DNA of 64,000 bases from an uncultured Bacteroidota bacterium. Its GTDB lineage: Bacteria > Bacteroidota > Rhodothermia > Rhodothermales > DASSAV01. Location of the stretch: the NCBI GenBank assembly GCA_963790965.1, contig CAWBQO010000002.1:1-64000 (forward strand), given 5' to 3'. The position numbers and the translations under genes are program-made. Under the pieces are notes generated by a model, which had not been told where the DNA came from, searched no databases, and saw only the letters and a list, made by a program, of their open reading frames with translations. This document shows positions 15,419 through 58,993 of this stretch, piece after piece (position 1 is the first letter of the stretch; the number at the start of each line of letters is the position of its first letter).

Positions 15419-17455
15419 GTGAGCGAATCCGACCGTCGCCGCCAAGAGCAACGGAGAGACATAGCAATGTCAAACACAGGAAACCCAAACGAACACCACG
15501 TGGAAAGTCCGACAGCGCCGACTACGAGAGCGCCGACCGACCGATCGAACGACGAACAGACGACGCAGACGGACCTCCTGGGCGGGTTACAGATCAATTC
15601 GACGGCCGACATACGGGTACCGAAGCGTCTCGTCGATCAGGTCATCGGACAGGAACATGCCCGCGACATCGTCATGAAGGCGGCCAAACAACGGCGCCAC
15701 GTCATGCTGATCGGATCGCCCGGGACGGGGAAATCGATGCTCGGGAAGGCCATGGCCGAACTCCTCCCGAGAGAGGAGCTACAGGACGTTCTCGTCTCGT
15801 ACAACCGTGACGATCCGAACCGACCGCACGTTCGGACGGTTCCGGCGGGTGACGGGAGAGGGATCGTCGAGATCCACAAAAATGAAGCGCGCAAGCGGAG
15901 GGGAACGCGATCAATGATGTTGTGGATACTCCTCATCGCGATTCTGGGGTACGCGCTGCTCATCGCGAACAATCTCCTGATGGGAATGCTGGCTGCCGGA
16001 ATCGTAGTCATCATCTTCGGGCTCAACAACAGCCGACAGACCGTTCTCGTTCCGAATCTTCTGATCAACAACGGGCATCGAAAGACGGCTCCGTTCGAGG
16101 ACGCGACGGGTACCCACGCCGGTGCACTACTCGGTGACGTCCGCCACGACCCGTTTCAGTCCGGCGGGATGGAGACTCCGAGCCACGATCGCGTCGAAGC
16201 TGGTGAGATCCACAAGGCGAACAAAGGCGTGCTGTTCATCGACGAGATCAACACCCTCGACGTCCGCTCGCAACAACACCTGATGACCGTGATTCAGGAG
16301 GGCGAGTTCAGCATCACGGGCCAATCCGAGCGGTCTTCCGGGGCGATGGTCAAGACCGAACCCGTCCCGGCAGATTTCGTCATGATCGCCGCGGGCAACG
16401 TTGATGCGATGGAGAACATGCATCCAGCACTCCGGAGCCGACTCAAGGGATACGGATACGAAGTCTATATGGACGACACGATCCCGGATACATCTGAGAC
16501 GCGCCGGAAGTACGCCCGGTTCATCGCCCAGGAAGTCGTTAAGGACGGTCGAATCCCGCACTTCGATCGACGTGCAGTAAATGAGATACTCCTCGAAGCT
16601 CAGCGACGATCCGGTCGACAGGGGTATCTGACGCTCGAACTACGGGACCTCGGTGGACTTGTCCGCGTCGCTGGAGACATCGCTCGTACTGATGGTTCGG
16701 TGTTCGTTACCCGGGATCACGTCCTGCAGGCGAAGGGTCGCTCGCGCTCCATTGAGCAACAATTCGCCGATGACTACATCGAACGCCACAAAGACTACGA
16801 ACTCGCCGTCAACGAAGGATATGCGGTCGGTCGCGTCAACGGACTTGCTGTCTTGGGCGAAGACTCCGGGATCGTGTTACCGGTGATAGCCGAGGTGACG
16901 CCGTCACAGAGCTCGGGTGATCTCATCGTCACTGGGAGATTACGAGAAATCGCCGTCGAGGCGGTTCAGAACGTCTCGGCGGTCATCAAGAAACTCTCCG
17001 ATGCGGGCCTGAACGAGCAGGATGTGCACGTGCAGTTCCTTCAGACAGGTGCTGGTGTCGACGGCGACTCGGCATCTGTCACGGTCGCCACGGCGGTCAT
17101 TAGCGCGCTCGAAGACGTTGCCGTCGATCAGAGCCTCGCCATGATTGGTTCGCTGTCGGTCCACGGAGACGTCCTCCCCGTCAACGGAGTGACGTACATG
17201 ATCGAGGCTGCCGCGAAAGCTGGATTGAAACGCGTCGTCGTTCCGAGGGCGAACCTCCAAGATGTCCTCATCGAAGACGAATTCCGCGAATTGGTCGAGA
17301 TCATCCCCGTCTCCGATCTCAGCGAAGTTCTCAACGCTGCACTCGAAGGCACACCCGAGAAACGGTCGCTTGTCGGCCGGTTCGACCACCTAACCGATCC
17401 GCCGACTACTCGACCATTCATATTCGACCCTGGACGGAGTCCAAGTCCACGATAG
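15419..17455 (+). CDS. lon: Archaeal-type ATP-dependent Lon protease (LonB, membrane-anchored)
   Basis: Walker A LIGSPGTGKSML, two TM helices inserted in the AAA domain, C-terminal S16 proteolytic domain (DGDSASVTVATAVISAL…LAMIGSLSVHGDVLPVNG). GTG start at 15419; alternative ATG at 15467. Confidence 0.8.
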   Translation: MSESDRRRQEQRRDIAMSNTGNPNEHHVESPTAPTTRAPTDRSNDEQTTQTDLLGGLQINSTADIRVPKRLVDQVIGQEHARDIVMKAAKQRRHVMLIGSPGTGKSMLGKAMAELLPREELQDVLVSYNRDDPNRPHVRTVPAGDGRGIVEIHKNEARKRRGTRSMMLWILLIAILGYALLIANNLLMGMLAAGIVVIIFGLNNSRQTVLVPNLLINNGHRKTAPFEDATGTHAGALLGDVRHDPFQSGGMETPSHDRVEAGEIHKANKGVLFIDEINTLDVRSQQHLMTVIQEGEFSITGQSERSSGAMVKTEPVPADFVMIAAGNVDAMENMHPALRSRLKGYGYEVYMDDTIPDTSETRRKYARFIAQEVVKDGRIPHFDRRAVNEILLEAQRRSGRQGYLTLELRDLGGLVRVAGDIARTDGSVFVTRDHVLQAKGRSRSIEQQFADDYIERHKDYELAVNEGYAVGRVNGLAVLGEDSGIVLPVIAEVTPSQSSGDLIVTGRLREIAVEAVQNVSAVIKKLSDAGLNEQDVHVQFLQTGAGVDGDSASVTVATAVISALEDVAVDQSLAMIGSLSVHGDVLPVNGVTYMIEAAAKAGLKRVVVPRANLQDVLIEDEFRELVEIIPVSDLSEVLNAALEGTPEKRSLVGRFDHLTDPPTTRPFIFDPGRSPSPR

Positions 17456-27623: not shown

Positions 27624-28325
27624 TCAGCGGGAGTTGTCATCGTCTCCGTCCGAGATGATTCTCGTCCCCTCGAATTTGCCGGTTCGGACAGCGGTGAGGA
27701 TGCACTCTGGATCGGTTCCGTCGATAACCACTGTTTCGCAGTGTGCACGTTGGATTATCTTCGCGGCGAGAAGGTCGATCGGTACACTTCTCCCGGCAGT
27801 GCTGTCGATATCGAGGATGAGGGTAATGAGTTGGCTCGCGCGTAACTCGCCGAATGGTTCTGCGTCTGGGTGAGTGTGGGGATCCGCGCTAAAGACGCCA
27901 GGCACGTTCGTCGCATAGATGAGACGTTCTGCGTTGATGTATTCAGCAAGTAGTGCGCTCACTGCATCAGTAGTTTGACCGGGTGCTGATCCACCCATGA
28001 CGACGATGTCGCCACAGCGGAGCGCTCTGCCCGCCGCTTCGTAGTCTGTAGATGGCGTCAAGACGGCATCGTCGCCGATTGCCGCGATGAGAAGCCGGGC
28101 GTTTAGCCGAGTAACCCCGATACCGATTTGATCAAGTTCGACTTCGTTCGCACCGATAGCTCGCCCCACATCGATGAATTCACGCGCAGGAGATCCACCT
28201 CCGGTAACGACACAGACGTTGTGCTCCTCGGCGAGTGTTGTGATGACGGCTGCGTACTCTCGAAACTGTTCTGGGTCAAGCGTCGGCACGAGGAGACTCC
28301 CGCCGAGTGCGAGTACGATGCGCAT
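27624..28325 (-). CDS. pyrH: Uridylate (UMP) kinase, archaeal type
   Basis: MRIVLALGGSLL amino-acid-kinase N-terminus, VVTGGGSPARE, GDIVVMGGSAPGQTTDAV motifs; ~230 aa as in archaeal PyrH. Confidence 0.8.
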   Translation of the reverse strand: MRIVLALGGSLLVPTLDPEQFREYAAVITTLAEEHNVCVVTGGGSPAREFIDVGRAIGANEVELDQIGIGVTRLNARLLIAAIGDDAVLTPSTDYEAAGRALRCGDIVVMGGSAPGQTTDAVSALLAEYINAERLIYATNVPGVFSADPHTHPDAEPFGELRASQLITLILDIDSTAGRSVPIDLLAAKIIQRAHCETVVIDGTDPECILTAVRTGKFEGTRIISDGDDDNSR

Positions 28326-37086: not shown

Positions 37087-38361
37087 CTAGTATTCAATGC
37101 GGGTGATCTCTTCGACAGGCCATTCGCTGAGGATCTCAACGCCGTTCTCTCGGACGACAACCATCTCTTCGACGCGGACCCCCTGACGATCGGCTGGTTG
37201 CATTGTCTCAACGGCCATTGTCATGCCTTCCTCAATTTCGATAGGGTGTTCAGGTGAGAGACCACGCCAGATGAGTGGTTCCTCGTAAAGTTGGAGACCA
37301 AGCCCGTGCGCCCAATGATTAGTAGTCATTTGCCAGAATTCGTCGGCATCATACCACTCCATGTGTTCACCCTCTTCGTCTGGGAATCCTTGAGAGATCT
37401 CATCCGTAGTCGCTCCGGGTTCAATCCGTTCGAGAACGTTATAGAGATCATTCCGAGCGGTCTCGTATGCATCCTTTTGGGCTTGGGTGGGTTCGCCGAT
37501 ACTAAATGTGCGATAGTAGCACGAGCGGTAGCCGAGGTAGCCGATGTTGTAGAAGTCAGCGTAGACCAGATCACCGGGTCGGATCATCCGGTCGGTCGTG
37601 TTCGCCTGGTGTTTCGGCCACGTGTTCGGCCCCGATGTAAGGTAACCGCCCTGCACCATCGCGCCGTGTCGCCAGAGTTCACGCGTCGCCTCGCCCCACA
37701 CCTCTGACTCGCGCATGCCGGGCTTGGCTCCGTCTTTGATGGCCTGGAAGCCGGCCTCACAAATCGCTGCGACCATCCGAAGACATTCAATTTCGTCACG
37801 GGTTTTGATCTTACGAGCATCGTGCATCAGATCAATGCACTCGGTCGTTTGGATCTCGATATCATTCTTCCCGAAGGCATTGATCAGGCCCTGATTTCCG
37901 ACATCAAGTCCTAGGGGTTCTTTTCCGACGCCGTACTCTACCATAGCCTCAGTGACAATATCAGCCATCTTCTGTTTCAACCAACTCCGAGCAGAATCAC
38001 GTCCACTGGCGCGTGGTACATTGCCGAGTCCAGGTACGGCATATCGGATGTCGGTGAGCCATGGACAATTGAACCGCTGATTACTTGCATGGTCTGCTGT
38101 GTCCCAGTGGACAATGTCCCCGTTCTCCGTGAGTAAGGTGTAATGATCCGCGCCTGACCCACCAGTCATCGCGAGTCCTGTGACATACCTGATGTTCGGA
38201 TCAGAAACGAGCAATAGGCTCCCAAGATCAGAATCTTGTAGTCGCGAGAGAATCTTCTCATAACGCTCCTCCCGGAGGCGTTTCACATTGATTCGTTCCT
38301 CCCAATCGACAGCCTGCATGCCGCGTGTTCCTTCCATGAAGGATCTCTGATAGAAACTCAT
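37087..38361 (-). CDS. M24-family metallopeptidase (creatinase/prolidase-type, with creatinase-like N-domain)
   Basis: 424 aa; N-terminal creatinase_N-like region; pita-bread fold motifs (…DFYNIGYLGYRS…, HGLGLQLYEEPLI…, …EEGMTMAVE…). Confidence 0.7.
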   Translation of the reverse strand: MSFYQRSFMEGTRGMQAVDWEERINVKRLREERYEKILSRLQDSDLGSLLLVSDPNIRYVTGLAMTGGSGADHYTLLTENGDIVHWDTADHASNQRFNCPWLTDIRYAVPGLGNVPRASGRDSARSWLKQKMADIVTEAMVEYGVGKEPLGLDVGNQGLINAFGKNDIEIQTTECIDLMHDARKIKTRDEIECLRMVAAICEAGFQAIKDGAKPGMRESEVWGEATRELWRHGAMVQGGYLTSGPNTWPKHQANTTDRMIRPGDLVYADFYNIGYLGYRSCYYRTFSIGEPTQAQKDAYETARNDLYNVLERIEPGATTDEISQGFPDEEGEHMEWYDADEFWQMTTNHWAHGLGLQLYEEPLIWRGLSPEHPIEIEEGMTMAVETMQPADRQGVRVEEMVVVRENGVEILSEWPVEEITRIEY

Positions 38362-38541
38362 ACATGATTAAAGAGTGTGAACACCCATAAATTACCACTG
38401 GTACCGGCGGTTCGCTCATAGAGTCGCTAACTTTTCTATCAGGCTGTTCAGCAAGTCAGCACCTATTCAGTCTATTTGAACTCTCAAATATTATTAAGAC
38501 CTTAGTTTTATTACTTCGTAGGACTCTACAGTATTTGTCAT

Positions 38542-39276
38542 ATGTTCAAGCACGTTGCACTGTTAGTGCGACAGAGAGGGATGACTCATAACGAGTTCAT
38601 CGACCACTGGCAAGATACTCATACTCCTATTGCACGAGAGATAGAGGGCGTCGTTCGATACCAGCAGGTCCTTCCCACCGAACCAGACCATGCCGAGTTC
38701 GACGGGCTTGCAGAGCTCTACTTCGAGACGCTTGATGACCTCCATGAAGCATTAGGTTCAGAGGGCTCTCGGGACTACGATCCGACAAAGGAGGTCGCTG
38801 CAGAGGCTCGTCGGGATGTAGACAATTTTCTTGATGTCGAACAACGTCCCCGCCTCATTGGTGAGGAACGTGTTGTCAAAGATACTGTCAATGGTGATAC
38901 TGACGGGCTCTACAAGCACTCTGCCTTCTTAGTTCGTAAAGAAGGAATGACGCATGAGGAGTTCCTCGATCATTGGCAGAATACTCATACCCCCATTGCC
39001 AAGGAAATTGAGGGTGTAGTCCGATACTGCCAAGTTGTACCGACCAATCCCGAATATGCAGAATTCGATGGTATCGCAGAGCTATATTTCGAGGATTTGG
39101 ATAAACTCTATGATGCACTTGGCTCGGAGGGTTCGCGAGACTACGAAGCAAAGGGCGGTAAAGGAGAAGAAGCTCGAGAAGACGTAGATAATTTCCTTGC
39201 GATTAAGGATCGACCGCGGTTTATTGGCCGTGAACAGCTCGTCAAAAACGGAATCGAGAACGTCATTGGTTATTGA
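38542..39276 (+). CDS. Tandem double EthD-domain protein
   Basis: Two ~115-aa repeats, each with FIDHWQDTHTPIA(R/K)EIEGVVRY…AEFDG(L/I)AELYFE…GSEGSRDY. Confidence 0.55.
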   Translation: MFKHVALLVRQRGMTHNEFIDHWQDTHTPIAREIEGVVRYQQVLPTEPDHAEFDGLAELYFETLDDLHEALGSEGSRDYDPTKEVAAEARRDVDNFLDVEQRPRLIGEERVVKDTVNGDTDGLYKHSAFLVRKEGMTHEEFLDHWQNTHTPIAKEIEGVVRYCQVVPTNPEYAEFDGIAELYFEDLDKLYDALGSEGSRDYEAKGGKGEEAREDVDNFLAIKDRPRFIGREQLVKNGIENVIGY

Positions 39277-39374
39277 GAAGTGAGCCCCAGAGTACGACTC
39301 AGGAGTTAAGTTTCCAATAGATGGTGCCCGTAAAGTACTGAAAATTAGTCAGAAGCGGCCATCAGAGTGGAGAA

Positions 39375-40358
39375 TTAGACTGATTTTAGTCCTTGCTCTT
39401 GGCGTAGGGTATTGATATAGTCTCTAAAACCAGATTGAAGATCATACTCTGGTTCATAACCCAGATCTTCTTTCGCCTTGGTCATATCGAGCCGTTGTGT
39501 CCAGGGAAGTTCCCCTTCATTACTGACTTGAATATCAGCATCCGGTAAAATCTTCTCAACGGTCTCTGCAGCTTTTCGAACAGTAGCTAGTTCACCACGA
39601 ACATTGTAGATCCGTTGAGTCAGATCGGAGTCAGGCGTCACTGCAGCTCGATAGAAGCCCTGTGCGATGTCTGCCACATGTTGCCAATTGATTTCTTGGT
39701 CGCCATAATCCACGGAGAACGACTCACCGAGTGCTGGCTTTTCAACGATGTTCGCAAGGAAAGCCGATCCCCCAGTTTTTCGATAGGGTCCATATGCCAC
39801 GGTGGGTCGAATTGCAACATGAGAGATACCAAATTCCTCCCGATATACGCGTGCTTGGTGTTCGTTGTACTCCTTACTCGCCCCATAGAGGGTGTCGGGA
39901 TAGACAAGATCATCCTCGGTAACCCACCAATCGTTACAGCTGGCATAATTTGAGGGAGGTGCATACACCGCTGCCGATGAAGCCCATGCAACCCGTTTAA
40001 CTTGATCATTGAGGGTTCGTGCCGCTTCAAAGACATTATTGGTCCCTTCAACGTTCACCTGTAGAGCAGATCGTGGGTTGCTCCGAGCGGTGTTGGTTAG
40101 CAGCGCTGCCAAATGGACAATGTGCGTAGCACCAGTTTCTTTGACGGCTCGAATGACATCAGACGAATCACTCACATCACCATGGCGAACTTCGATATCT
40201 GAGGAAACATTAAGCTTCTCTAGGATATCTGTATCAGTCGAGAGATCGTACGCAACAACATCAGCACCCTCTTCGACAAATCTCTTAGCAGTGTATGAGC
40301 CAATGAATCCGGTCCCTCCAGTGATGAGTACAGTAGCGTTCTCCATCGTCGAGTACAC
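39375..40358 (-). CDS. NAD-dependent epimerase/dehydratase (extended SDR) family protein
   Basis: VLITGGTGFIGSY Rossmann motif; ~327 aa as in UDP-sugar 4-epimerase-like enzymes. Confidence 0.7.
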   Translation of the reverse strand: MYSTMENATVLITGGTGFIGSYTAKRFVEEGADVVAYDLSTDTDILEKLNVSSDIEVRHGDVSDSSDVIRAVKETGATHIVHLAALLTNTARSNPRSALQVNVEGTNNVFEAARTLNDQVKRVAWASSAAVYAPPSNYASCNDWWVTEDDLVYPDTLYGASKEYNEHQARVYREEFGISHVAIRPTVAYGPYRKTGGSAFLANIVEKPALGESFSVDYGDQEINWQHVADIAQGFYRAAVTPDSDLTQRIYNVRGELATVRKAAETVEKILPDADIQVSNEGELPWTQRLDMTKAKEDLGYEPEYDLQSGFRDYINTLRQEQGLKSV

Positions 40359-40406
40359 TTTCGGATGAATTCAAGAAAAGTATTGTGCTAAAACGAGATC
40401 TGTTGG

Positions 40407-42095
40407 CTACTCATGGAGTCCACCGACTTTACTATAGAACGATGACTGTAGTGTCTCAGCCATATTCGTCTCACGGTCAATGCGTACATCTACAACTGTG
40501 GGAATATCTGTTGCTTTTGCTTGAGCGAGCTCGTCACTGATCGAATCTGGATCGGTGACGCGTATTCCATTTGCTCCAAAACCTTTGGCGATTTTAACCA
40601 AATCTGTATCGTGGAACTCGACGCCGGGGATATTATTATCCATCTGACGCACCATACCCAACGAAGTGTCATTGAGCACAACGAAAGTGGGTGCAACCCC
40701 ATACTCAACAGCAGTTTCGATACAGGTCATCGTCATTGTGAAACCACCATCACCAGCAACAGCGATAACATCTTTTTCGGTCGTAATGGCCGCTGAGACT
40801 GCAGCCGGACCTGCCCACCCCATCCCACCCACACCACCGGATCCAAAGTATGTTCGAATAGCAGGAGTTTGTAAATAATTCAGTAGCCAGAATCGGTTGT
40901 TGCCTGAGTCAGCTGTAATGATAGTGTCCTCGTCCACAAGGCGACTGATCTCTTTGACAGCGCGTTGTGGGAGAATAGGGACTGCATCAGACATGCAGTC
41001 GGGAGTCGTGAAGTCCTCACGGGCAGCGGCCGCACGATCAAGTGCCCAATCGTTTGAGCCGGATTCTTCGACTGCAAGAGCAGTTAGTGTCTCAGTTGCG
41101 TCACCAATGAGACCTATATCAGCTGGATAGACCCAACCAGCATTCCGAGTGTCAATATCGGCATGAATTATTGTCTGGTCACCAGGACGAATGAAGGACG
41201 CTTCCTGCCAATTCGTATCCATTGGGTTCATTCGGCACCCAACGATAAGCAGAACATCTGCTTCACTCACTGCCCGGTTCGCTCCCTCGTGACCAAATGA
41301 CCCGATCACGCCTGCAGCGCGTTCATTGGTTTCGGGAAAAGTCGACTTTCCAAGATAGGAAGTAGTCACGACAGCGTCATAAGTTTCGGCGACTGCTTGT
41401 AGTTCACTGTAGCATTGAGACGCATGAACACCATTCCCGGCAATAATGACTGGCCGTGAAGCATTTGCAAGAGCCTCCGCTGCAGCCTCTACCTCCTGGG
41501 TTGTCGGTGAGGTCTTCCAGTTTTTTGTCTGTTTTTCTGGTGTCCAAATCGGGGGCACTGTTGGCTTAGGTACTTCATCAGTGATTGCATCACCATCAAG
41601 GATAACAGCAGTTGGCCCCGGACGGCTCGCTGTGGCGTGCTTAAAGGCTAGTTGGACACTCCGCAAAGTCTCATTCGCCGACCGAGGGAACCACCACTCC
41701 TTGGTGATGCTATCCAGTATCTTTGGGAGTGAAAGTCCTCCATAATCACCTCGGGCTTGCTGATAAGGTGCGAGAGTTGAGTAATCACCACGCTCTGAGG
41801 CTTCTGTAAGTACAACCATCGGTGATGAGCCAAGACGAGCTTCCATCTGACCGATAGCACCAAGACTGCCAATCCAAGGTCCCTGTCCGGTGAGAATTCC
41901 TGGAGATTGATGGTATCGACCATACATCTCTGCCATCACGCTCGCTTCACGCTCATCCCGCGGTCGAACGATCTCGATGTCTGATTCTGCAAGTGATTCA
42001 AACAATTCGATGGCCCGACCACCAGGGTACCCAAAGAGATAACTAACATCCAGGTCTTCGAGCACATTGACAATTTCCGTAACACAGTTAGTCAT
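40407..42095 (-). CDS. Thiamine-pyrophosphate-dependent enzyme (acetolactate synthase / sulfoacetaldehyde acetyltransferase-like)
   Basis: Three-domain TPP enzyme architecture; GDGGF TPP-binding motif region (…AVAGDGGFTMTM…). ORF in the track extends to 42149; start chosen at the Met preceding the conserved N-domain. Confidence 0.7.
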   Translation of the reverse strand: MTNCVTEIVNVLEDLDVSYLFGYPGGRAIELFESLAESDIEIVRPRDEREASVMAEMYGRYHQSPGILTGQGPWIGSLGAIGQMEARLGSSPMVVLTEASERGDYSTLAPYQQARGDYGGLSLPKILDSITKEWWFPRSANETLRSVQLAFKHATASRPGPTAVILDGDAITDEVPKPTVPPIWTPEKQTKNWKTSPTTQEVEAAAEALANASRPVIIAGNGVHASQCYSELQAVAETYDAVVTTSYLGKSTFPETNERAAGVIGSFGHEGANRAVSEADVLLIVGCRMNPMDTNWQEASFIRPGDQTIIHADIDTRNAGWVYPADIGLIGDATETLTALAVEESGSNDWALDRAAAAREDFTTPDCMSDAVPILPQRAVKEISRLVDEDTIITADSGNNRFWLLNYLQTPAIRTYFGSGGVGGMGWAGPAAVSAAITTEKDVIAVAGDGGFTMTMTCIETAVEYGVAPTFVVLNDTSLGMVRQMDNNIPGVEFHDTDLVKIAKGFGANGIRVTDPDSISDELAQAKATDIPTVVDVRIDRETNMAETLQSSFYSKVGGLHE

Positions 42096-42792
42096 ATTTC
42101 TTGATCTTGAGGACATTACTTTGAGTTGATGAAAACGATTCATCTGCAACCATGAATCGATTCTAAGTCCTCTAGCTCTTATGTCTATTATTGATCCTAC
42201 TTTGGTTTATCGGTGAAATCGTCAATAATTCACCCCTAGGAGAGATTGCGGCTATTTAGTCAATATCCGAATAACTCGGATCAGAGCTATTGACCTTGGC
42301 TTTATTTGGGAGATCACACCGTCAAAAAATCCTTAGCAAGAAGAGACTGGAGCACTTGATAGCAGGACCAAAAGCATCTCAGGCCCCTTCTTCTCACTTG
42401 AAATTGAGTCACCCATTAATAGATAAATCCAGAAATCAGTGATCTTATTCATTGACCGGGAGTATTTTCAGCATATTTTACTCAATGTAATAGAGTCAGA
42501 TTAGGTAGAATTCGGTATTAACACCATTGGTCAGCCAATCCGAATAATTCGGATGATAATTGCTAGGTATATTGGTCTTCGTTACATATCTATACGTGTA
42601 ACGGGACGTGATACGTTAACAATCGAGGAGCAAAAGGCGGCGATAAAGTAAACTTTGGAATCACAAATGAAATAAGTCTAGTTGACTTCCGAATCCGAAT
42701 ATATGGGACTCAAGAGAAATTTAAATTGATCTCAATTTCATTGGTCGCTCCGAGGAGTAAATTAGGGAATTGGTCCCTGAGGAGATCACCCT

Positions 42793-43500
42793 TTACTCGA
42801 TTTGATGGGCCGGAAATGCTGATGGCACCAATAGCGGTACCATTGGTATCCGTAATGGGGACTCCAACTCCATTAAGTCGTTGAACAGATTCCTCAAGAT
42901 TGAACGCATACCCCGTTCGGCGATTTGGTCCAGTTCTTCGAACAGCTGCTCCTGATCGATGATTGTTTCTCCGGTTTGGGGAGGGAGACCATACTTTCTA
43001 ACAATCTCACTCACACGTTCTCGCGAAAAAGTTGAGAGAATTGCCTTACCGGCGGCGAGCTGATGGAGATAGCCGAACTGCCCCTCCCGTGCATTGGTCT
43101 GAACAGAGTGACGACCGGATGCACCGTAGAGATGGATACTCCGACCGTGTTCCTCGGTCACACACCAGACCTTTTCATTTGTTTCCTTAGCTAACTCGTC
43201 TACCTTTGGTACTGCAACATGATAGAGGTCGCATTGTCGCCGAGAATGCAAGCCAAAATCCAGCATTCGAAGCCCAATCCGATATCGTCCATTGTCAACC
43301 GTTACGAGATCAAGATCCTCTAAGGTGTGTAGGTGACGGTGGATAGTGCTCCGAGAGGGATCTAGCGCTCCAGCTAATTCAGCTAGCGTGACTTCATCGC
43401 GCTTCTTGATCTCAGTGAGAATTTTGTTTGCGGTTTCGACTGTCTTTACAGGTCGGGACGGAGTGGTTGGCATATATTGACAGTCATTTTGCTTCTTCAT
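42793..43500 (-). CDS. IclR-family transcriptional regulator
   Basis: N-terminal wHTH (LAELAGALDPSRSTIHRHLHTLEDLDLV) plus C-terminal IclR effector domain; alternative start at 43473. Confidence 0.7.
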   Translation of the reverse strand: MKKQNDCQYMPTTPSRPVKTVETANKILTEIKKRDEVTLAELAGALDPSRSTIHRHLHTLEDLDLVTVDNGRYRIGLRMLDFGLHSRRQCDLYHVAVPKVDELAKETNEKVWCVTEEHGRSIHLYGASGRHSVQTNAREGQFGYLHQLAAGKAILSTFSRERVSEIVRKYGLPPQTGETIIDQEQLFEELDQIAERGMRSILRNLFNDLMELESPLRIPMVPLLVPSAFPAHQIE

Positions 43501-43795: not shown

Positions 43796-43954
43796 ATGAG
43801 CTATCTCTTCGGATTTCCAACACCAGTTGTTGAAGTGCTCTTAGTCATGTTATGTATTATCCTCTCTTCAGCGATCTACTTCGGACTTCAATTCGAGCCG
43901 GTAGAAACGATTGAAGAAGAAACGATAACAGCAGGTACGGAGGCATCCGAATGA
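43796..43954 (+). CDS. Small single-TM protein (52 aa) translationally coupled to the SSS symporter; DUF3311/YhdT-like accessory subunit candidate
   Basis: Not in the ORF track (<60 aa): MSYLFGFPTPVVEVLLVMLCIILSSAIYFGLQFEPVETIEEETITAGTEASE; ATGA overlap with the 43951 start. Confidence 0.4.
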   Translation: MSYLFGFPTPVVEVLLVMLCIILSSAIYFGLQFEPVETIEEETITAGTEASE

Positions 43955-45354
43955 CACTAGCCTTAGCACTATATCCGTTACAAGCATGGGGAGAAAATAT
44001 AGGAGTTCATTATTCATCACCGATCGCAATTATCTTCATCATCGTATTTTCAGTCTTAATGATCGGTATCGGTATTTACGCCGGGAGGCGTCAATCAAAT
44101 GAAGAGGACTATTTTGCAGCAGGACGGAGTGGAGGTATAATCGTTGTTTCATTAGCGATCTTTGCTTCTATTCAAAGCGGATGGGGGATGGTTGGGGTGA
44201 CTGGTACTGGGTATGAAATTGGCGTAGAATATCTTCTAATAACAGGGACTCTCGTCCCATTAGGATTTGTCATATCATACTGGCTACTTGGGCGAAAGAT
44301 GCGGATATTAGGAGAAACGCATGACGCGATTACGGTCCCAGATGCAATGTTCTATCAATTTAACGATGAGCGTGTTCGGCTACTGGGATCGATATCGGTC
44401 TTATTGGGTTGTATAGGATATCTAGCAGCCCAGTATGCAGCCTTAGGAATTATTGGGTCACTCATTCTCCCAGTGAATTTCCTTGAAGCACTCCTCTTAG
44501 GACTAATCGTTGTGGGATTTTATACAGTCATTGGAGGGATGCTTGCAGCCATCTGGTCTGACGCCGTTCAAGGAATAGTAATGATCATTGGTGCGTTGCT
44601 CACTGCTTTCTTCCTTATTACAAATTATCCAGGTGGTACAAGTGGGATGATATCAGATATTATGGCACACAATCCAGGGTATTTCAATTTCTCATTACTA
44701 GGGATGAATGGCACCGCCGCGATAGGACTGCTGCTCTCGGTCGTCATCATCAATCTCACAGTAGCTGGGCAGCCACATGCGATAACGAAATTCTATATGA
44801 TTAGGGATGTCTCGCTCCTACGTTGGGGGCCACTTCTCACCGCTGTAGGCTATGCAGTGACTGCGTTGTACTGGGTCGCTGCTCCCTTCGCTCGAGCTGC
44901 AGTTACTGCGGGACATGTTCCGAACCCAGGTACCCCTGACGCTGCCCTCCCACTCGCTGTTATTGAATATTCTCCAGATGTAGTCGTTGCGTTTGTTCTG
45001 ACAGCAGTAATCGCCGCAATTATGTCCACAAGTAATTCATTCTTGAATATGGGCGCTTCGGCCGTCGTCCACGATTACTTCATTAAATACTCAGACAAGG
45101 AACTGTCTGACAAGGAAGAAGTTCGGTATGCACGTCTCACTACATTCGGCATTCTTGTAGTTGCGTTCATTCTAGTCTGCCTAGTTTCCCAGGTCTCATA
45201 TTTGTATAGGAGCTGCTGGTTGGGCGATTTTCGCAGCGGTCATTTTTCCCTGCGTTGCGATTGCATACAATTGGAAAGGGGCTACCACGGAAGGCGCACT
45301 TGCCGGTGGCAGTGTCGGCCTTATCCTCGCTATAGCTTGGGCATATGCTGCTAA
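43951..45354 (+). CDS. Sodium:solute symporter (SSS) family transporter. Apparent frameshift near 45190, with the C-terminal part continuing in another frame to ~45500 and then reading into foreign high-GC sequence
   Basis: Multi-TM SSS architecture (…AAGRSGGIIVVSLAIFASIQSGWGMVGVTGTGY…). The last ~50 aa of the called ORF are non-protein-like, while frame 45404.. continues with TM-like sequence (QAAMVIGYVVFIIVSLGTST…). Confidence 0.6.
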   Translation: MTLALALYPLQAWGENIGVHYSSPIAIIFIIVFSVLMIGIGIYAGRRQSNEEDYFAAGRSGGIIVVSLAIFASIQSGWGMVGVTGTGYEIGVEYLLITGTLVPLGFVISYWLLGRKMRILGETHDAITVPDAMFYQFNDERVRLLGSISVLLGCIGYLAAQYAALGIIGSLILPVNFLEALLLGLIVVGFYTVIGGMLAAIWSDAVQGIVMIIGALLTAFFLITNYPGGTSGMISDIMAHNPGYFNFSLLGMNGTAAIGLLLSVVIINLTVAGQPHAITKFYMIRDVSLLRWGPLLTAVGYAVTALYWVAAPFARAAVTAGHVPNPGTPDAALPLAVIEYSPDVVVAFVLTAVIAAIMSTSNSFLNMGASAVVHDYFIKYSDKELSDKEEVRYARLTTFGILVVAFILVCLVSQVSYLYRSCWLGDFRSGHFSLRCDCIQLERGYHGRRTCRWQCRPYPRYSLGICC

Positions 45355-45519
45355 GTATCTTGGAGTAAGTCTGCCATATGGTATTCTTGGAGGACAAGCG
45401 GCGATGGTCATCGGTTATGTCGTCTTCATCATTGTTTCGCTCGGCACTTCCACGAGCGCATATGACGAACTCAGTGAGGAGATGCAGCAGATTATGGATC
45501 TTGGGAGAGTCAGAGGAGG

Positions 45520-47907
45520 TCATGTGGATAATCTTACCATCACTACTGACGGTGGTAGTGAACCAGGTTCGGCAGCAACCGAGCCGGCAGCCGCTGAGTC
45601 GGCGGCGGCCAGGGGCAAGAGATCGGCGGTCGACGGATCGCCGGTGGCCGTGTGCGGCGAAGCGTAAACGGTATCGGGACTGATAGCAAGAACGGCCGGC
45701 CGGAGGGTGTCCGCCACCGGTTCAATTCCAAAGGCGCGCAGGAGCGAATCCGCGACGGAGACCGGCACGGGATCATAGAGACTGAGGCTGTCCGCTCGCG
45801 CCCAATCAGTCAACGCAGATGCGGCGGCCATGAGGGCCTTCGGTGCGGCGGGCGTCTCACGATAATCGGCTGCGAGAGACATAAAAGCCGAAAAGCCTTC
45901 CTGCGGATGGCCCTGTTGCCACTGCTCGTAGGCGCGCGCGTAAAGCCGCTCCGCCTGTGCAACGGAATCGGCATCCACCACGTGCACGGGAGCCGCGCCG
46001 AGGCGCTCGCGAATGAGATTTGCGAACTCCGACTCCGGGAAGGACTCAACGACGTGGCGGTAGAGCCGGTTGGCCGTGGTCGAATCGCCAAGAGCGCGCT
46101 GCACCTCGGCGAGGGCGTAGTAGGCGCGCTGCGAGACCGGAAGGGTTTCGTTCTCGTCGATGACCATGCGGTACCAGGTGGCGGCCGAGTCCGCCCGGTT
46201 CATGGCCAGAAATAGGACATTGCCGAGTTCGTACCGAGCCATCGCTCGTTCGTTGATCACGCGCGTTCGGGAAACGATGTCTCTCGGAATGCCGGACACG
46301 TCAACGACGGGCAGCTGTTCGTCTGCGGTGGCGAGGGATCCGGTGAGGGTGGCTCCAGGAACGGCAATGTCCGCGCCCGCTCCTTCGTCTGCCGCCAGGC
46401 GCGTGATCGCTTCCTTGCGTCGCCAGTTCGGGACCAGCGGCCGTTCGCCCCACCGGTCCACGAAAACCATCCACCCTTCTTGCACCCGCAACGGGTCATC
46501 GAAAGACAGGAAGGAGGCCCCTTCCCGTGCGGCGGTCGCGCCGGGCGAGCGCTGGTCGACGACAGCTCCCCGCGTGTTGCGGAATCCTTCCTCCGCCTGC
46601 CGACGCTCCAGATCGCGCTCTTGCTGCTTCAGTTCGTCCCTGCGAGCTTCCCGTAGCCGGAGAACGAAGGCTTCATACGCTTCGTCATCGAGGCTGCCGA
46701 CGTACAGCAGCGAATCGAGCAAAGCAACGCGCTGCCTCACCTCGGCGAATCGCCGGAACGTCTCGGCCTGCCTGCCGGCATCCGTCAGCGCTTCAGGTGC
46801 CCACTGCTTTTTGAGCGTCCCGGGCGCATCGCTTTTCTGGCCCAGCGCGGACGCCGCCGTATCAAAGTGAGCCGCTGCGAAAACGTAGTCGTGGTAAACG
46901 TCCCGGTAGAGTTCCGCGAGGGCGTAGTGGACGGGTCCGCGAATGGCCGAAATGTTGGCATCTGAGCCGTAGAGGACCTCGTCGAAGGTCAGAAAGGCTT
47001 CGTCGGCTTCGCCCTGCGCCTGCAAGATGCGGCCGCGGGTGAAGAGCAGTTCGCCCCGGTTGGCGTAGTGGTTGTCGTCGCGCTCCATCTTGCGCAGCGA
47101 CTGCATCGCCCATTCCGGATTCGTGTGCTGCCCCGCCACGCGAATGGCGCTCAGCTGGGCGGCGTACGAGAGTTCGTAAAGCGGCTTGTGGCGTTCAACG
47201 GACCGGTACGCCTCAACGGCATCGGCGTAGCGACCCATCTTCTCGTAAACTTGTCCGAGCAAAAAGCGGGCGCGGGCGGCGATGTCGTTGTCGCGGACGT
47301 GCTCCAGGCCGAGCACCAGTTCGTCAGAAGCAGGCGTCCACTGCTCCTGCCGCACGTATAGTTCGCCGAGAGCGAGGTGCAGCATGGAGGCCCACTTCTT
47401 CGAGAGTCCTTCTTCTTGCAGGCTGAGCGTCAGGTGGTCGACCGCCTCCGCGTAGGCCTCGCGGGCAATCAGCGTGCGCGCAAGCCAGAAAGTAGCTTCG
47501 TCCTGAAGCGGGCCTTCATCAAAGAGGACTTCCCGGAATTTCTGCTCGGCTCCGAAGTAGTTCTTCTGGTAGAAATAGGATTTGCCAATCAGCAGCAGCG
47601 CGTCGTCGATCCACTTGGACGAGGCGTGGTCGCGCAGCACGTCGGCGCTCTTCTTGATCGCGTTCTCGAAGTCCTGCTGATTCCCCGATCCGGCGGGGAC
47701 GGAGAAGACGGGCAGATAGGTCGTTCTATCAACGGGCTGATTCGTCTTTTCAAGCGCCTTCAGGCCCTTATCGTATGATTTTCGGGCGTTATAGAACGTG
47801 TTGTAATAGGCCGTGAAGTTGTCCACCCGTTTGCCCACGAAGGAGGACGACTTGCACCCGGAGAGCAGGATGATCCCGAGCAACAAGAGAAGGCTGCGGC
47901 GCATCAC
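45520..47907 (-). CDS. TPR-repeat lipoprotein (Bacteroidota-like), 795 aa; C-terminus possibly truncated by the composition junction
   Basis: MMRRSLLLLLGIILLSGCKSS lipoprotein signal; multiple TPR-like helical repeats; the last ~15 codons lie in low-GC sequence. Confidence 0.6.
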   Translation of the reverse strand: MMRRSLLLLLGIILLSGCKSSSFVGKRVDNFTAYYNTFYNARKSYDKGLKALEKTNQPVDRTTYLPVFSVPAGSGNQQDFENAIKKSADVLRDHASSKWIDDALLLIGKSYFYQKNYFGAEQKFREVLFDEGPLQDEATFWLARTLIAREAYAEAVDHLTLSLQEEGLSKKWASMLHLALGELYVRQEQWTPASDELVLGLEHVRDNDIAARARFLLGQVYEKMGRYADAVEAYRSVERHKPLYELSYAAQLSAIRVAGQHTNPEWAMQSLRKMERDDNHYANRGELLFTRGRILQAQGEADEAFLTFDEVLYGSDANISAIRGPVHYALAELYRDVYHDYVFAAAHFDTAASALGQKSDAPGTLKKQWAPEALTDAGRQAETFRRFAEVRQRVALLDSLLYVGSLDDEAYEAFVLRLREARRDELKQQERDLERRQAEEGFRNTRGAVVDQRSPGATAAREGASFLSFDDPLRVQEGWMVFVDRWGERPLVPNWRRKEAITRLAADEGAGADIAVPGATLTGSLATADEQLPVVDVSGIPRDIVSRTRVINERAMARYELGNVLFLAMNRADSAATWYRMVIDENETLPVSQRAYYALAEVQRALGDSTTANRLYRHVVESFPESEFANLIRERLGAAPVHVVDADSVAQAERLYARAYEQWQQGHPQEGFSAFMSLAADYRETPAAPKALMAAASALTDWARADSLSLYDPVPVSVADSLLRAFGIEPVADTLRPAVLAISPDTVYASPHTATGDPSTADLLPLAAADSAAAGSVAAEPGSLPPSVVMVRLST

Positions 47908-48311
47908 GAAGAGTAGGTCTGGGAGACAGGAAAGGGCACGCTGCCGCCGAGGCGCGCCATCGCGGCACCCGGTTAACCGTACCTGAACTCGTATCAGTCG
48001 CCCATATATCGTTGAATTAGGAGGCTGTTGAAATAAAGCAAATCCAGACCAGACATGGCAGGTTATTTAAATAGAATCAACAGCGAACTAAAGAAACGCT
48101 GAGATGCTTCGCTTCGCCGGCAGGACTCGGGCAGGATGTTCTGCTTTAGGTGTGCGCCGCCCTATTTAGCCTTCTCCGGCATCCCCGCTTGTCATCCTGA
48201 ACAGAGTGAAGGATCTACCCCTCCAGACTACTAAGAGGCTGTTGATTTACTATTGATGGGATGTATCGCAGATATTCTGGTCCGCGTCTATGACTGGAAT
48301 GCTGCCTAACA

Positions 48312-48350
48312 CCCCCTTGAATCCCCCTCAAGGGGGACGTTGCGTTTTTA
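48312..48350 (+). terminator. Candidate intrinsic terminator hairpin (9-bp perfect stem cccccttga/tcaaggggg, 7-nt loop) followed by a T-run
   Basis: Read directly from the sequence; oriented for a plus-strand transcript although no plus-strand gene lies upstream. Confidence 0.3.
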
Positions 48351-48363
48351 CTTCGGTCCTTAT

Positions 48364-48405
48364 CGCCAGCTACATACAGCGTCTGCTAATTTTTTAACGG
48401 CCTCC
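48364..48405 (+). repeat. Bacterial intergenic ~42-nt motif, copy 1 (cgNcagctacatacagcg..tNctgNtaNtttttaacNgNctc)
   Basis: Strong similarity to 61574..61615. Confidence 0.4.
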
Positions 48406-48557
48406 TAAATAGCGCCCCCGCCACTTACCCGGCGACGAGGACAAGGCGCGTGTTCTTCAGCATTCGAGCGGTGCACCCCTTCAGATCAACCTTTGTTTAT
48501 CCAGCGGACTAAGAAATAGCAGCCTCTTAAAGCGCCCGGGGGCAGCGGCCGCTGCCG

Positions 48558-49991
48558 CTACTCCATGCGGCTAACCTGAACCATGTTAGTCTGGCCCTTA
48601 GACGGAAGCGGCATTCCGGCCGTGATCACGATGAGGTCACCCGGCTCGGCCAGACCGTGCTCGGAAAGTGTTCTTCTTACAGTGTTTACACCCTGGTCGG
48701 TGTCCGCTTGGAAAGGTATGGCGAAGGCTTTTGTTCCCCAGAGGATACCGAGATGGCCCACCACACGCGGGTCGTCCGTGAAGGCAAAGACGGGCATATT
48801 GGGCCGGTGGCGGGCGATCGCTTTGGCAGTCGTGCCGGATGCCGTGAGGCACGCGATGGCGCGGGCGCTGACCTGCTCGGCCAGCTGCACGGCCGTGAAG
48901 GAGACGGCTCCGGTCACTTCTTCATAGCGCGTCACGCGAGGCGGCCGCAGCTCCGCGCGGGGATGGGTCAGCCGCTGGTAATTCTCGGCTTGTTGGATGA
49001 TCTGCGACATGACTTCGACCACGCGGACGGGGTACTTGCCCGTCGCGGTCTCTGCCGAGAGCATGAGCGCGTCGCTGCCGTCGAGCACGGCGTTGGCCAC
49101 GTCCGTTGCCTCCGCGCGGGTCGGACGGGGATTTTCGATCATGCTTTCGAGCATCTGCGTCGCTGTGATGACGGGCTTTGCGGCTGCGAGGCACTCTTCG
49201 ATGATCATTTTTTGCGCGGGCGGGACCTCTTCGAGCGGCATTTCGATGCCGAGATCGCCGCGGGCCACCATGATGCCGTCGGCCTCATGGAGGATGTCGT
49301 CGATGTCGAGAACGGCTTCCGGCTTTTCGATCTTCGCGATGACGCCGGTTCGCCGGCCGGACGCGCGCACGCGGCGCACGAGGTCGATCACGTCGGCCTC
49401 GCTGCGGACGAAGGAGAGGGCGATCATGTCCACCTCCGACTCCAGCCCGAACTCGAGGTCCTCGATGTCCTTGCCGGTAAGCGAGGGCGTGTTGGTGCGA
49501 ATGTGCGGCAGATTGACGCCTTTGCGTGGCCGAAGCGTCCCGCCGACCACAACTTCGGTCACCACGTCCGACCCGATAATGTCCGTGATTTCCAGTTCGA
49601 TGTGCCCGTCGTCCACGAGGATGCGGCGGCCCACCTCGACGTCCTGCGCGAGCGTCAGGTAGTCGATGTAGACCCGGTCGGCCGTCCCTTCGATCTCGTC
49701 GGTGGTAAGCGTGAGGCGCTGCCCTTTGTGCAGGAGCACGCCGCCGTTGCGGATCTGCCCGACCCGAATCTTCGGGCCTTGCAGGTCTTGCAGGATGGAC
49801 ACGGTGCGCCCGAGACGATGGGCCTCTTCGCGCACGAAACGCATCATCTGGAGATGGCTTTCGTGCGTGCCATGTGAAAAGTTTAGCCGTGCCACATCCA
49901 TGCCCGCGGCAATCAAGGCCGCAATCGCCTCGCGATCCGAACTTGCCGGGCCAAGCGTGCAAACGATCTTTGTCCGCCTTGTACTCTCCAT
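48558..49991 (-). CDS. pyk: Pyruvate kinase
   Basis: MESTRRTKIVCTLGPAS…ARLNFSHG…; 477 aa with canonical PK barrel and C-terminal domains. Confidence 0.85.
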   Translation of the reverse strand: MESTRRTKIVCTLGPASSDREAIAALIAAGMDVARLNFSHGTHESHLQMMRFVREEAHRLGRTVSILQDLQGPKIRVGQIRNGGVLLHKGQRLTLTTDEIEGTADRVYIDYLTLAQDVEVGRRILVDDGHIELEITDIIGSDVVTEVVVGGTLRPRKGVNLPHIRTNTPSLTGKDIEDLEFGLESEVDMIALSFVRSEADVIDLVRRVRASGRRTGVIAKIEKPEAVLDIDDILHEADGIMVARGDLGIEMPLEEVPPAQKMIIEECLAAAKPVITATQMLESMIENPRPTRAEATDVANAVLDGSDALMLSAETATGKYPVRVVEVMSQIIQQAENYQRLTHPRAELRPPRVTRYEEVTGAVSFTAVQLAEQVSARAIACLTASGTTAKAIARHRPNMPVFAFTDDPRVVGHLGILWGTKAFAIPFQADTDQGVNTVRRTLSEHGLAEPGDLIVITAGMPLPSKGQTNMVQVSRME

Positions 49992-50277
49992 AAAGTGCGC
50001 TACGCTGTGGTTGCGGGCCTATGACACCCTGTTTGCTGCCATTGCCGGTTCAACGTTGCCGTTCCGAGCAGCAAAGGTACGACAGAGGCACGATCCGGCT
50101 GCAGGCGCTTTGGCTTCGATACGGTGAATTCCGGAAGCGCAAGCGCTCTGCAGGCGTTGGGGAGCGGAAACGCTGCGGCGCAAAGGTGGTTCGCTATTTG
50201 CAGAGTCCCTTCTAACAACCGGTTCATTGCCATTGTCACTGGTACCATTCATGTTCGTTCTCAGCCGAACGGGGCGC

Positions 50278-50682
50278 ATGTTCGCTTTGTTCGTGACCTT
50301 AATCATCATTCTGAGCGCTTCTGTGCCGTCCGCCTCGGCGCAGGAGAGTCCGAAGAAAATGCTCGACTCCATTCAAGCCGCTTTTTCGAAGGGCGAAAGC
50401 AGGACGTTGATGGACTACACGTCCGAACGAATGGACATGGCGCTGTTTGACAAGCGTGCGCTGGTAAGCCGTGGGCAGGCGGCGTATGTTATGGAAGAGT
50501 TCTTTCGTGCCTTCCCGCCCCTGAGCTGCACCTTCGAAGAACCGACGCGCACGCCGAACGCGTGGTTCGTAGGCGGTCTGTACCGGCACCGCGTCAGCGC
50601 GGACACATTCAACGTCTACGTCGGACTGCGGCGGAAAGGGGAAGCATGGGAACTGCGGGAGATCCGAATCAATAAGCCCTGA
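50278..50682 (+). CDS. Small secreted protein (signal peptide, NTF2-like/DUF4783-like)
   Basis: MFALFVTLIIILSASVPSASAQ signal peptide; ~135 aa; ORF in the track begins at 50227. Confidence 0.4.
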   Translation: MFALFVTLIIILSASVPSASAQESPKKMLDSIQAAFSKGESRTLMDYTSERMDMALFDKRALVSRGQAAYVMEEFFRAFPPLSCTFEEPTRTPNAWFVGGLYRHRVSADTFNVYVGLRRKGEAWELREIRINKP

Positions 50683-50746
50683 TCTACTCTCGGCAGAGTG
50701 GCCTTTGCCGCCCGCCTGATGCCGCTACCGTTCTTCTTGTCTCACC

Positions 50747-54952: not shown

Positions 54953-55466
54953 AGTCCCGGTGGCCAAAGTAGTGCAGGACGTACCGCAGCTTCCTGGTTT
55001 TGTCCTTGCCGAAGCCGGGCAGGGCGAGAACCCGCGTCGCGACAACCTCGAAGGGCACATCGCCGCTCCATAGCCTGTCGGCGCGGCCCTCGTATTGATC
55101 CACCAGAAGGCGGGCGACTTCGTGCGTGGTATCCGCCATCTTATTCGTAAACCGGTGGACGGCGGGCTTCTCCGCAAAGATCTCGCGAAGCCGTTCCGGT
55201 GTCATCACCGCAATCTGCGCAAGGTCGAGATGCCCAAGCCGGTCGCGGAGCCGGTGCGGACCGGTAAAAGCATATTCCGCTCGGACGCGCTGATCGTAGA
55301 GCAGCCCCAGCAGGGCGGCATTGCCGTCCTGCCGGAGAAAATCGTCTGCCTCTGCGTCGCCGGTCAGGGTGCCTTCTTCCCGGAAGCGGTCCAGCATTCG
55401 GGCCAGGCCGCCTTCAAGGTCGCTATAGTCCAGCTCTACGATCCGCACGCGCACCGGATCAACCAT
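54939..55466 (-). CDS. HhH-motif (HhH-GPD-like) putative DNA glycosylase/base-excision repair protein
   Basis: 175 aa; helix-hairpin-helix-like LALPGFGKDKT; assignment tentative. Confidence 0.3.
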   Translation of the reverse strand: MVDPVRVRIVELDYSDLEGGLARMLDRFREEGTLTGDAEADDFLRQDGNAALLGLLYDQRVRAEYAFTGPHRLRDRLGHLDLAQIAVMTPERLREIFAEKPAVHRFTNKMADTTHEVARLLVDQYEGRADRLWSGDVPFEVVATRVLALPGFGKDKTRKLRYVLHYFGHRDFSGS

Positions 55467-55485
55467 TTGCTTTCGGGTTCAAAGC

Positions 55486-56502: not shown

Positions 56503-56634
56503 GTTCTACCTGACAATAGAGGGCGAACGCCCGTCTGTGATTCGATAGCCACAGCGTCGCTGCGGCACCGGTAAAGACGCCGGGCACTCGGGGGCGTTCC
56601 GCTATTATTGCGCGAAGGGACGGTCGCTGTTCTC

Positions 56635-58984: not shown

Positions 58985-58993
58985 CCGGGTGCC

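Follow-up and report, generated by a model that had tools for sequence, protein, structure and literature searches.

A junction between haloarchaeal and Rhodothermales DNA inside a public 561-kb contig is very probably an artefactual join

Chimeric contigs that combine several phyla or even domains have been documented in metagenome assemblies produced with metaFlye, metaMDBG and hifiasm-meta (bioRxiv 10.1101/2025.04.22.649783). Such contigs show a sudden shift of GC and gene taxonomy at a single breakpoint, place organisms of different domains on one long contig and carry spurious ORFs across the breakpoint. The same traits were found at the locus described here. The published chimeras were diagnosed by 100% read clipping and a coverage step, whereas the present one was recognized from sequence alone. 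A second point of comparison is offered by genomic islands and other horizontally transferred segments, such as the haloarchaeal-type genes of Salinibacter ruber, in which DNA of foreign composition likewise lies beside native DNA; the archaeal side here is IS-rich and megaplasmid-like. Unlike such islands, the archaeal DNA is not bounded by an integrase, tRNA, att site or repeat, shows no amelioration, exceeds 45 kb and includes archaeal housekeeping genes. Moreover, no second boundary is visible in the window (the whole 64-kb stretch that was analyzed), and the remainder of the cut host gene is missing.

The gene cut on the bacterial side encodes a member of the PorW/SprE family. With the systems represented by NF052312 it shares a lipoprotein signal (…LLSGC), TPR architecture and pyk upstream. 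It differs from them in lacking 120 to >350 C-terminal residues and the downstream ftsH, and in an ORF end that is antisense archaeal sequence. The features of the locus are collected in Table 1.

Table 1. Positions of the two segments and of the genes used to characterize the junction
Feature	Position	Strand	Evidence or description
Haloarchaeal segment	1..45565		GC ~0.37–0.59; IS-rich; LonB and archaeal PyrH
Archaeal membrane protease LonB (archaeal housekeeping marker)	15419..17455	+	TIGR00764, 853 bits
Archaeal-type UMP kinase PyrH	27624..28325	-	TIGR02076 pyrH_arch, 248 bits (cut-off 158)
M24 peptidase–EthD–SDR–TPP enzyme–IclR cluster	37087..43500		Haloarchaeal; pHV4 synteny
Haloarchaeal sodium:solute (SSS) symporter gene, without its last few codons and stop	43951..45561	+	NCBIfam SSS/PutP matches
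Spurious PorW ORF tail (…PPSVVMVRLST and stop)	45520..45565	-	Antisense strand of symporter gene
Spurious 3′ extension of symporter frame into bacterial DNA	45562..45667	+	~35 codons to TAA stop
5′ part (~780 codons) of type IX secretion lipoprotein gene porW/sprE, C-terminal module missing	45566..47907	-	NF052312
Rhodothermales segment	45566..64000		GC 0.57–0.67; PorW, pyk, 1401-aa histidine kinase, HemB, CysS, UvrC
Bacterial pyruvate kinase, conserved upstream neighbor of porW	48558..49991	-	TIGR01064, 554 bits

The original prediction described an abrupt switch of composition and taxonomy within a few tens of bp. In agreement with it, GC, tetranucleotide usage, CTAG frequency and gene taxonomy were all seen to change at one point. 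GC in 1-kb windows was 0.37–0.59 on the left (mean ~0.52) and 0.57–0.67 on the right, and in 200-bp windows it stepped from 0.50–0.53 to 0.63–0.68 between 45,400 and 45,700. A strand-symmetric third-order Markov log-likelihood placed the change-point between 45,565 and 45,566 (score 210–313 nats); the junction zone of 45,548–45,584 is the 3-nat support interval of this change-point (~±18 bp). The recommended checks of sliding-window GC and tetranucleotide frequencies both separated the two sides at the junction. With GC-normalized tetranucleotides, all 10 left chunks were nearer the left centroid (correlation 0.54–0.89 vs 0.24–0.59) and all 4 right chunks nearer the right centroid (0.88–0.89 vs 0.46–0.60). 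For CTAG, the left side had 62 occurrences against 83 expected, and the right side a single one against 18 expected. Since each side retains its own composition, neither shows amelioration.

The junction at 45,565 was the single taxonomic break in the 64 kb. Further composition shifts, at 19–22 kb and 36–37 kb, were IS-bounded or intergenic and archaeal throughout. The shift near 36 kb was considered as another chimeric break and rejected: it corresponds to AT-rich intergenic DNA that follows an ISH3-type element, with haloarchaeal DNA beyond it.

The original prediction had also proposed comparing the two halves, and their best taxonomy differed at the domain level, the left half being haloarchaeal and the right half belonging to the Rhodothermales. 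The archaeal LonB, PyrH and ISH elements read from the left side were confirmed by matches to TIGR00764, TIGR02076 and ISH6/ISH3; an IS630 transposase was found there as well. PyrH reached only 51 bits against the bacterial model. Homologues of LonB and of the symporter were haloarchaeal in every case. The best non-self match of LonB, at 87% identity, was on an ENA metagenome contig. Its identity was 72–74% to Haloplanus, Halobium and Halegenticoccus and 68% to Haloquadratum sp. J07HQX50, so that the proposed resemblance to square haloarchaea did not hold. An origin from Haloquadratum was taken to mean closest relatives in that genus and a GC of ~48%; the relatives and the mean GC of the left side both departed from this. 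The archaeon represents a new Haloferacales-like lineage. Its closest archaeal relative (L003) has a LonB gene of 83% nucleotide identity; no shared synteny around LonB was found, so this relative is no guide to the expected continuation. ORFs of the low-GC island had no match in PADLOC, Pfam or NCBIfam.

Closer to the junction, the cluster from the M24 peptidase to IclR resembles a described one on H. volcanii pHV4 and H. mediterranei pHM500 in gene content and order, with 67–71% nucleotide identity over ~4.4 kb. All plasmid records matching the cluster were haloarchaeal (33/33), and the 8 kb left of the junction matched haloarchaeal megaplasmids only. In contrast to the megaplasmid clusters, the SSS symporter gene lies 3′ of IclR here, both of these genes are frameshifted and there is no counterpart of the HD and cupin genes found on pHV4.

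On the right side, homologues were Rhodothermales, and the first 8 kb beyond the junction gave matches to bacterial pyk only. The Bacteroidota- or Rhodothermia-like character ascribed to the downstream genes was confirmed for the PorW lipoprotein, UvrC, CysS and HemB. CysS had its best match at 67% in Roseithermus sacchariphilus, with 61–67% to Rhodothermales or Bacteroidota MAGs. The named matches of PorW were Rhodothermales, Rhodothermaceae and Rhodocaloribacter, the closest being 52–55% identical. The proteins of this side have a pI of 5.0–5.9, like those of non-halophilic relatives, and are not unusually acidic. A Salinibacter-like bacterium was expected to have its closest relatives in the Salinibacteraceae and a salt-in proteome of strongly acidic proteins; with Roseithermus as the best CysS match and with these pI values, that part of the original prediction is unsupported below the order level. 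The bacterium is assigned to the Rhodothermales by protein similarity, a placement that holds at the level of the order only.

Both convergent genes at the junction are truncated and their 3′ ends run across it, as had been noticed originally. Nevertheless, the extent of the loss is unequal (~2–12 codons for the symporter, at least 123 residues for PorW). Homologues of the symporter, which are haloarchaeal, 66–72% identical and 531–547 aa long, terminate 4–12 residues beyond a conserved TDGG, and the loss here amounts to ~2–12 codons and the stop.

PorW scored 313 bits against NF052312 (cut-off 250) over profile positions 3–684 of 716, and its N-terminus, MRRSLLLLLGIILLSGC, is a lipoprotein signal. 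Assignment to PorW/SprE thus rests on a whole-protein score above the curated cut-off together with this signal. Homologues run 123–356 residues further, indicating a loss of at least ~120 C-terminal residues. A second LYxxI..YPxSPYA motif, which 115 of the 120 homologues carry, is missing here; it was counted per domain, since an internal paralogous motif confounds a simple search. The motif is also missing in 3 of 118 full-length homologues (831–857 aa), and for this reason a short PorW alone is no proof of truncation. The continuation of the ORF into archaeal DNA, which supplies a tail of 14–15 residues, is the stronger argument.

The gene order pyk–PorW–FtsH–rpsL–rpsG–fusA is conserved in four Rhodothermales lineages and is broken here inside PorW. 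Adjacency of pyk and PorW was seen in L002, L004, L006 and L009. Neither the PorW C-terminus nor FtsH, S12, S7 or EF-G is encoded within 1–45,565. The native continuation on each side is inferred from relatives that are distant (LonB 87%, symporter 72%, PorW 52–55%).

None of the marks of an integrated-island boundary (integrase or recombinase, tRNA or att site, direct repeats, IS ends) was found. Scans of the whole 64-kb window for tRNAs and for Rfam RNAs gave no hits. No integrase or IS end was located at the junction, the nearest transposase gene being ~10 kb away. Searches for repeats around the junction returned short chance-level matches only, with no direct or inverted repeat, and no microhomology could be shown at the junction. 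It was also free of ONT, Illumina, Nextera and PacBio adapters and of N-runs. A 50-mer spanning the junction was absent from GTDB representative genomes, and the 33-mer just right and the 34-mer just left of it were absent from JGI metagenome contigs. Exact-product look-ups with the PorW ORF, pyruvate kinase and P0001 (the public copy of the PorW ORF) likewise returned no record.

A composition break, a switch in gene taxonomy, truncated genes at the breakpoint and interrupted synteny, the marks by which a chimeric contig is recognized, were all found. In addition, intact housekeeping genes of both domains occur on one molecule (archaeal LonB and PyrH; bacterial CysS, UvrC, HemB and pyk). The junction is very probably an artefactual inter-domain join, made at the assembly or read level, inside a public contig of 561,156 bp. 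The mis-join of haloarchaeal and bacterial contigs favored by the original prediction has thus had every one of its sequence-level expectations borne out. The join would have arisen in silico or in vitro and not in a cell. DNA of an uncultured haloarchaeon (1–45,565) would have been linked end to end to that of an uncultured Rhodothermales bacterium (45,566–64,000), most likely during metagenome assembly. Candidate causes are a wrong path taken through the assembly graph and a chimeric read that acted as a bridge. The breakpoints would then be arbitrary positions within two unrelated genes, from which a gene caller would produce two spurious ORF ends, namely the PorW tail of 14–15 residues and the symporter frame running ~35 codons into bacterial DNA.

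Could the join have been made outside the assembly itself? Concatenation of two unrelated sequences when the 64-kb window was prepared would account for the abruptness of the switch, and for nothing else. This explanation is refuted by the public record. LonB (P0241), the symporter ORF (P0121) and the chimeric PorW ORF (P0001) all reside on one NCBI/ENA contig of 561,156 bp, and P0001 (794 aa) has exactly the sequence of the PorW ORF that crosses the junction, its archaeal-encoded tail included. The presence of the three on the same contig means that the join was already in the deposited assembly. A step between assembly and deposition, in which contigs of a contaminated bin were concatenated or scaffolded without N spacers, would agree with the blunt join, with two genes that end as they do at contig ends and with the failure to demonstrate microhomology. 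Such a step is nevertheless improbable: there is just one taxonomic break in 64 kb, the shifts at 19–22 and 36–37 kb staying archaeal, and contigs with GC of ~0.52 and ~0.63 are rarely co-binned by composition or coverage. It would in any case be a sub-type of artefact and would leave the biological conclusion unchanged.

A genuine, very recent inter-domain recombinant is a still more remote prospect and is considered highly unlikely. It could take two forms. Either illegitimate recombination of the end-joining type inserted >45 kb of DNA from a haloarchaeon into the Rhodothermales porW, or a haloarchaeal replicon acquired >18 kb from a bacterial chromosome. The seamless junction without Ns or adapters, its position within a long (561 kb) contig and the megaplasmid-like, IS-rich and mobile-prone nature of the archaeal DNA beside it are all compatible with such an event. 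The literature describes exchange of single genes, for example those of rhodopsins, between haloarchaea and salt-loving Bacteroidota including Salinibacter, which also speaks for a recombinant. Known inter-domain transfers, however, comprise single genes or small clusters and not tens of kb of an IS-laden chromosome. Against a recombinant also stand the lack of amelioration on either side, the intact housekeeping genes of both domains on one molecule and a boundary with no integrase, att site, tRNA, IS end or target duplication. Moreover, porW would have been inactivated and a conserved essential neighborhood (ftsH and the str operon) severed, the rest of porW is not encoded in the 45.5 kb of archaeal DNA, and the junction had no independent occurrence among GTDB representatives or JGI metagenomes. 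If illegitimate recombination had taken place in a cell very recently, the sequence pattern would nevertheless be identical, and the caveat originally attached to the mis-join, that a genuine recent inter-domain transfer is a residual possibility, stands on that account.

As biology the junction is most likely unimportant, while as a matter of data quality it is important. With an artefactual join, a public contig of 561 kb mixes two domains of life, and at least one spurious protein is already present in public collections (P0001, the PorW with an antisense-archaeal tail). Bins, taxonomic assignments, pangenomes and screens for horizontal transfer that use the contig would wrongly report that housekeeping genes had been transferred between domains. 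Once the breakpoint at ~45,565 is flagged, the contig can be split there. Were the junction real, it would represent an exceptional bulk transfer of DNA from archaeon to bacterium or the reverse, and a snapshot of such a transfer preceding any selection or decay.

Three 1-nt frameshifts, the only ones established, were identified near the junction by comparison with homologues. Two are in the symporter gene (~45,172–45,185 and 45,204–45,211) and one is in the IclR gene (~42,908–42,915). Nanopore errors caused by CTAG methylation were considered as their source; this would suit two of the three sites, whereas the one in IclR is a G-run, which is too thin a basis for a claim. The frameshifts fall in the two archaeal genes that lie nearest the junction, and none was found in the genes of the 18.4 kb of bacterial DNA. 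As a weak clue, such clustering would fit a poorly supported consensus beside the join.

The DNA changes from archaeal to bacterial at a junction near 45,565. GC content, 0.37–0.59 before 45 kb and 0.57–0.67 beyond it in 1-kb windows, rises from 0.50–0.53 to 0.63–0.68 between 45,400 and 45,700 (200-bp windows). Strand-symmetric third-order Markov models, one trained per flank and compared by log-likelihood, placed the change-point at 45,565/45,566, with a 3-nat support interval of 45,548–45,584 and a score of 210–313 nats. By correlation of base-composition-normalised tetranucleotide vectors, all ten 4.5-kb chunks of the left side were closer to the left centroid and all four chunks of the right side to the right one; the mean r was 0.68 within left, 0.83 within right and 0.44 between them. 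The difference between the sides goes beyond GC. Windowed GC and tetranucleotides thus both separate left from right, and with the change-point they confirm the sharp compositional switch of the original prediction. CTAG is nearly missing from the right side (45,566–64,000; one site against 18 expected under a second-order model) and mildly depleted on the left (1–45,565; 62 against 83).

Features of the window on the two sides of the junction
Feature	Side	Position	Strand	Details
Insert splitting an ISH6-family copy	left	8,194–10,736		DDE_Tnp_1 gene 8,422–9,024; IS630-family transposase gene 8,979–10,079
Low-GC island	left	19,104–22,087		GC 0.37–0.43; ORFs of 203, 390 and 238 aa
Very acidic ORF run	left	30,202–33,992		301, 323 and 294 aa; D+E 0.22–0.25
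M24 peptidase–EthD–SDR–TPP enzyme–IclR cluster	left	37,087–43,500		compared with H. volcanii pHV4, 524,803–544,437
IclR frameshift	left	~42,908–42,915	minus	in G-run, between CGGGG and TAT
SSS symporter	left	start 43,951	plus	
SSS symporter frameshifts	left	~45,172–45,185; ~45,204–45,211	plus	
LonB, archaeal	left			TIGR00764, 853 bits
UMP kinase, archaeal-type	left			TIGR02076, 248 bits; bacterial model 51
Transposases	left			ISH6, ISH3 and IS630 families
M50 protease; HflK-like protein; haloarchaeal domains of unknown function	left			
PorW/SprE, type IX secretion lipoprotein	right	47,907 to 45,520	minus	NF052312, 313 bits (cut-off 250); aligns with homologues to ~residue 780
Pyruvate kinase; 1401-aa histidine kinase	right			
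HemB; CysS; Gfo/Idh/MocA oxidoreductase; UvrC	right			

The best non-self match of LonB was on an ENA metagenome contig (87% identity). Identity was 72–74% to the named haloarchaea Haloplanus, Halobium and Halegenticoccus and only 68% to Haloquadratum sp. J07HQX50, so the label of a square haloarchaeon was rejected for the left side. As judged by sequence, the archaeon represents a new Haloferacales-like lineage. At the nucleotide level, the LonB region (15,303–17,451) is 83% identical to positions 9,836–11,979 of the metagenome contig. The 20 kb around LonB in that contig (Orc/Cdc6, integrase, PadR, SMC-like gene) has nothing in common with the window, so the genes around LonB are not conserved across this pair of related archaea. 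The 8 kb immediately left of the junction matched 33 plasmid records, all haloarchaeal. The M24–EthD–SDR–TPP–IclR cluster matched H. volcanii pHV4 and H. mediterranei pHM500 at 67–71% nucleotide identity. It is common to several haloarchaeal megaplasmids, and its GC content of 0.46–0.50 is below that of the remaining archaeal segment, which suggests a plasmid-derived or transferred island inside the archaeal genome.

On the right side, PorW homologues belong to Rhodothermales, Rhodothermaceae and Rhodocaloribacter, with identities of at most 55%. The best CysS matches, from Roseithermus sacchariphilus and Rhodothermales MAGs, reach 67% identity, and right-side proteins are no more acidic than orthologues in non-halophilic relatives. 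The label "Salinibacter-like" therefore holds for the order, Rhodothermales, and fails below it. To the right of the junction, the adjoining 8 kb matched nothing in the plasmid collection but bacterial pyk genes. The two halves do not share a best taxonomic hit: on the left, LonB, symporter and plasmid matches are haloarchaeal, and on the right those of PorW and CysS are Rhodothermales, confirming the inter-domain chimerism.

The convergent symporter and PorW genes meet at the junction, and both proved to be cut there, as predicted. Haloarchaeal symporter homologues (66–72% identity, 531–547 aa) end 4–12 residues beyond a conserved TDGG. The symporter frame reads TDGGSE up to 45,561 and stays open for ~35 further codons of GC-rich DNA; only the last few codons and the stop have therefore been lost. 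PorW lacks at least 123 residues: in a 40-sequence alignment, all 37 homologues not labelled partial extend 123–356 residues further. A second LYxxI..YPxSPYA motif in this C-terminal extension, present in 115 of 120 listed proteins, is missing. The final 14–15 residues of the ORF (…PPSVVMVRLST) come from symporter-gene DNA read in antisense. Four Rhodothermales lineages share the order (HemB–CysS–…)–pyk–PorW–FtsH–rpsL–rpsG–fusA. The window has HemB, CysS, pyk and PorW, where the conserved order ends; neither the PorW C-terminus nor FtsH, S12, S7 or EF-G is encoded anywhere in the left-side 45.5 kb.

A public 794-aa protein, P0001, shows complete identity with the PorW ORF, down to the archaeal-DNA-encoded tail, so creation of the junction by cutting the window was rejected. 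Two further public proteins correspond to the frameshifted symporter ORF (P0121) and LonB (P0241). NCBI and ENA records place all three on one 561,156-bp contig, and the chimera is therefore present in the deposited assembly. The tail of P0001 is a database artefact of this contig. The junction 50-mer was not found among GTDB representative genomes, nor were the junction-flanking 33- and 34-mers in JGI metagenomes, and neither population was represented by an independent assembly in the collections searched. What natively follows on each side is predicted from relatives.

The junction is very probably an artefactual join. Both sides are unameliorated, each with intact housekeeping genes of its own domain. 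The break is blunt, falls at arbitrary points inside two unrelated genes and cuts a conserved essential bacterial neighbourhood. No integration machinery, meaningful direct or inverted repeats, adapters or N-runs were found at the junction, scans of the whole window detected neither tRNA nor Rfam RNA, and the closest transposase gene is 10 kb away. Own signatures, blunt break, severed neighbourhood and bare boundary are those of a textbook chimeric contig, and support the original preference for mis-assembly or concatenation. The join may have arisen in the assembly graph or from a chimeric read; post-assembly concatenation would be less likely. Multi-phylum and multi-domain chimeric contigs from metaFlye, metaMDBG and hifiasm-meta, recognised by abrupt changes of GC, coverage and gene-level taxonomy, have been described in a preprint (10.1101/2025.04.22.649783); the GC and gene-taxonomy shifts here are alike.

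An identical sequence pattern would result if DNA of the two domains had genuinely recombined very recently. Such an event is nevertheless highly improbable. Either an IS-laden stretch of archaeal DNA exceeding 45 kb, archaeal housekeeping genes included, would have to have been transferred in bulk, or an archaeal replicon would have to have taken up more than 18 kb of a bacterial chromosome; amelioration and boundary features would both have to be lacking, and porW would have to have been inactivated. The junction is very probably no feature of biology, and it is useful as a quality flag for the public contig and the spurious proteins derived from it.

Three 1-nt frameshifts lie in the last two archaeal genes ahead of the junction, IclR and the symporter, and none was seen in the bacterial genes of the 18.4 kb to its right. 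One symporter site lies between two CTAG motifs, the other between GTA and TAGGA, where the homologue reads V-L-G. As a weak clue, the frameshifts fit a thinly supported long-read consensus by the join; real decay in an IS-ridden region is equally possible.

The left side also contains nested IS elements. An ISH6-family copy (7,739–8,193 and 10,737–10,871, minus strand), interrupted by a 2.5-kb insert, is 85–87% identical to an intact copy at 22,180–22,756. The low-GC island is flanked by ISH6-family transposase genes (partial, 18,199–19,107; intact, 22,268–23,605) in a composite-transposon-like layout, and its three ORFs had no match in Pfam, NCBIfam or PADLOC. The acidic ORFs are without family match save a PRiA4_ORF3 domain in the last, and the run is closely followed by an ISH3-type transposase gene (34,057–35,733).
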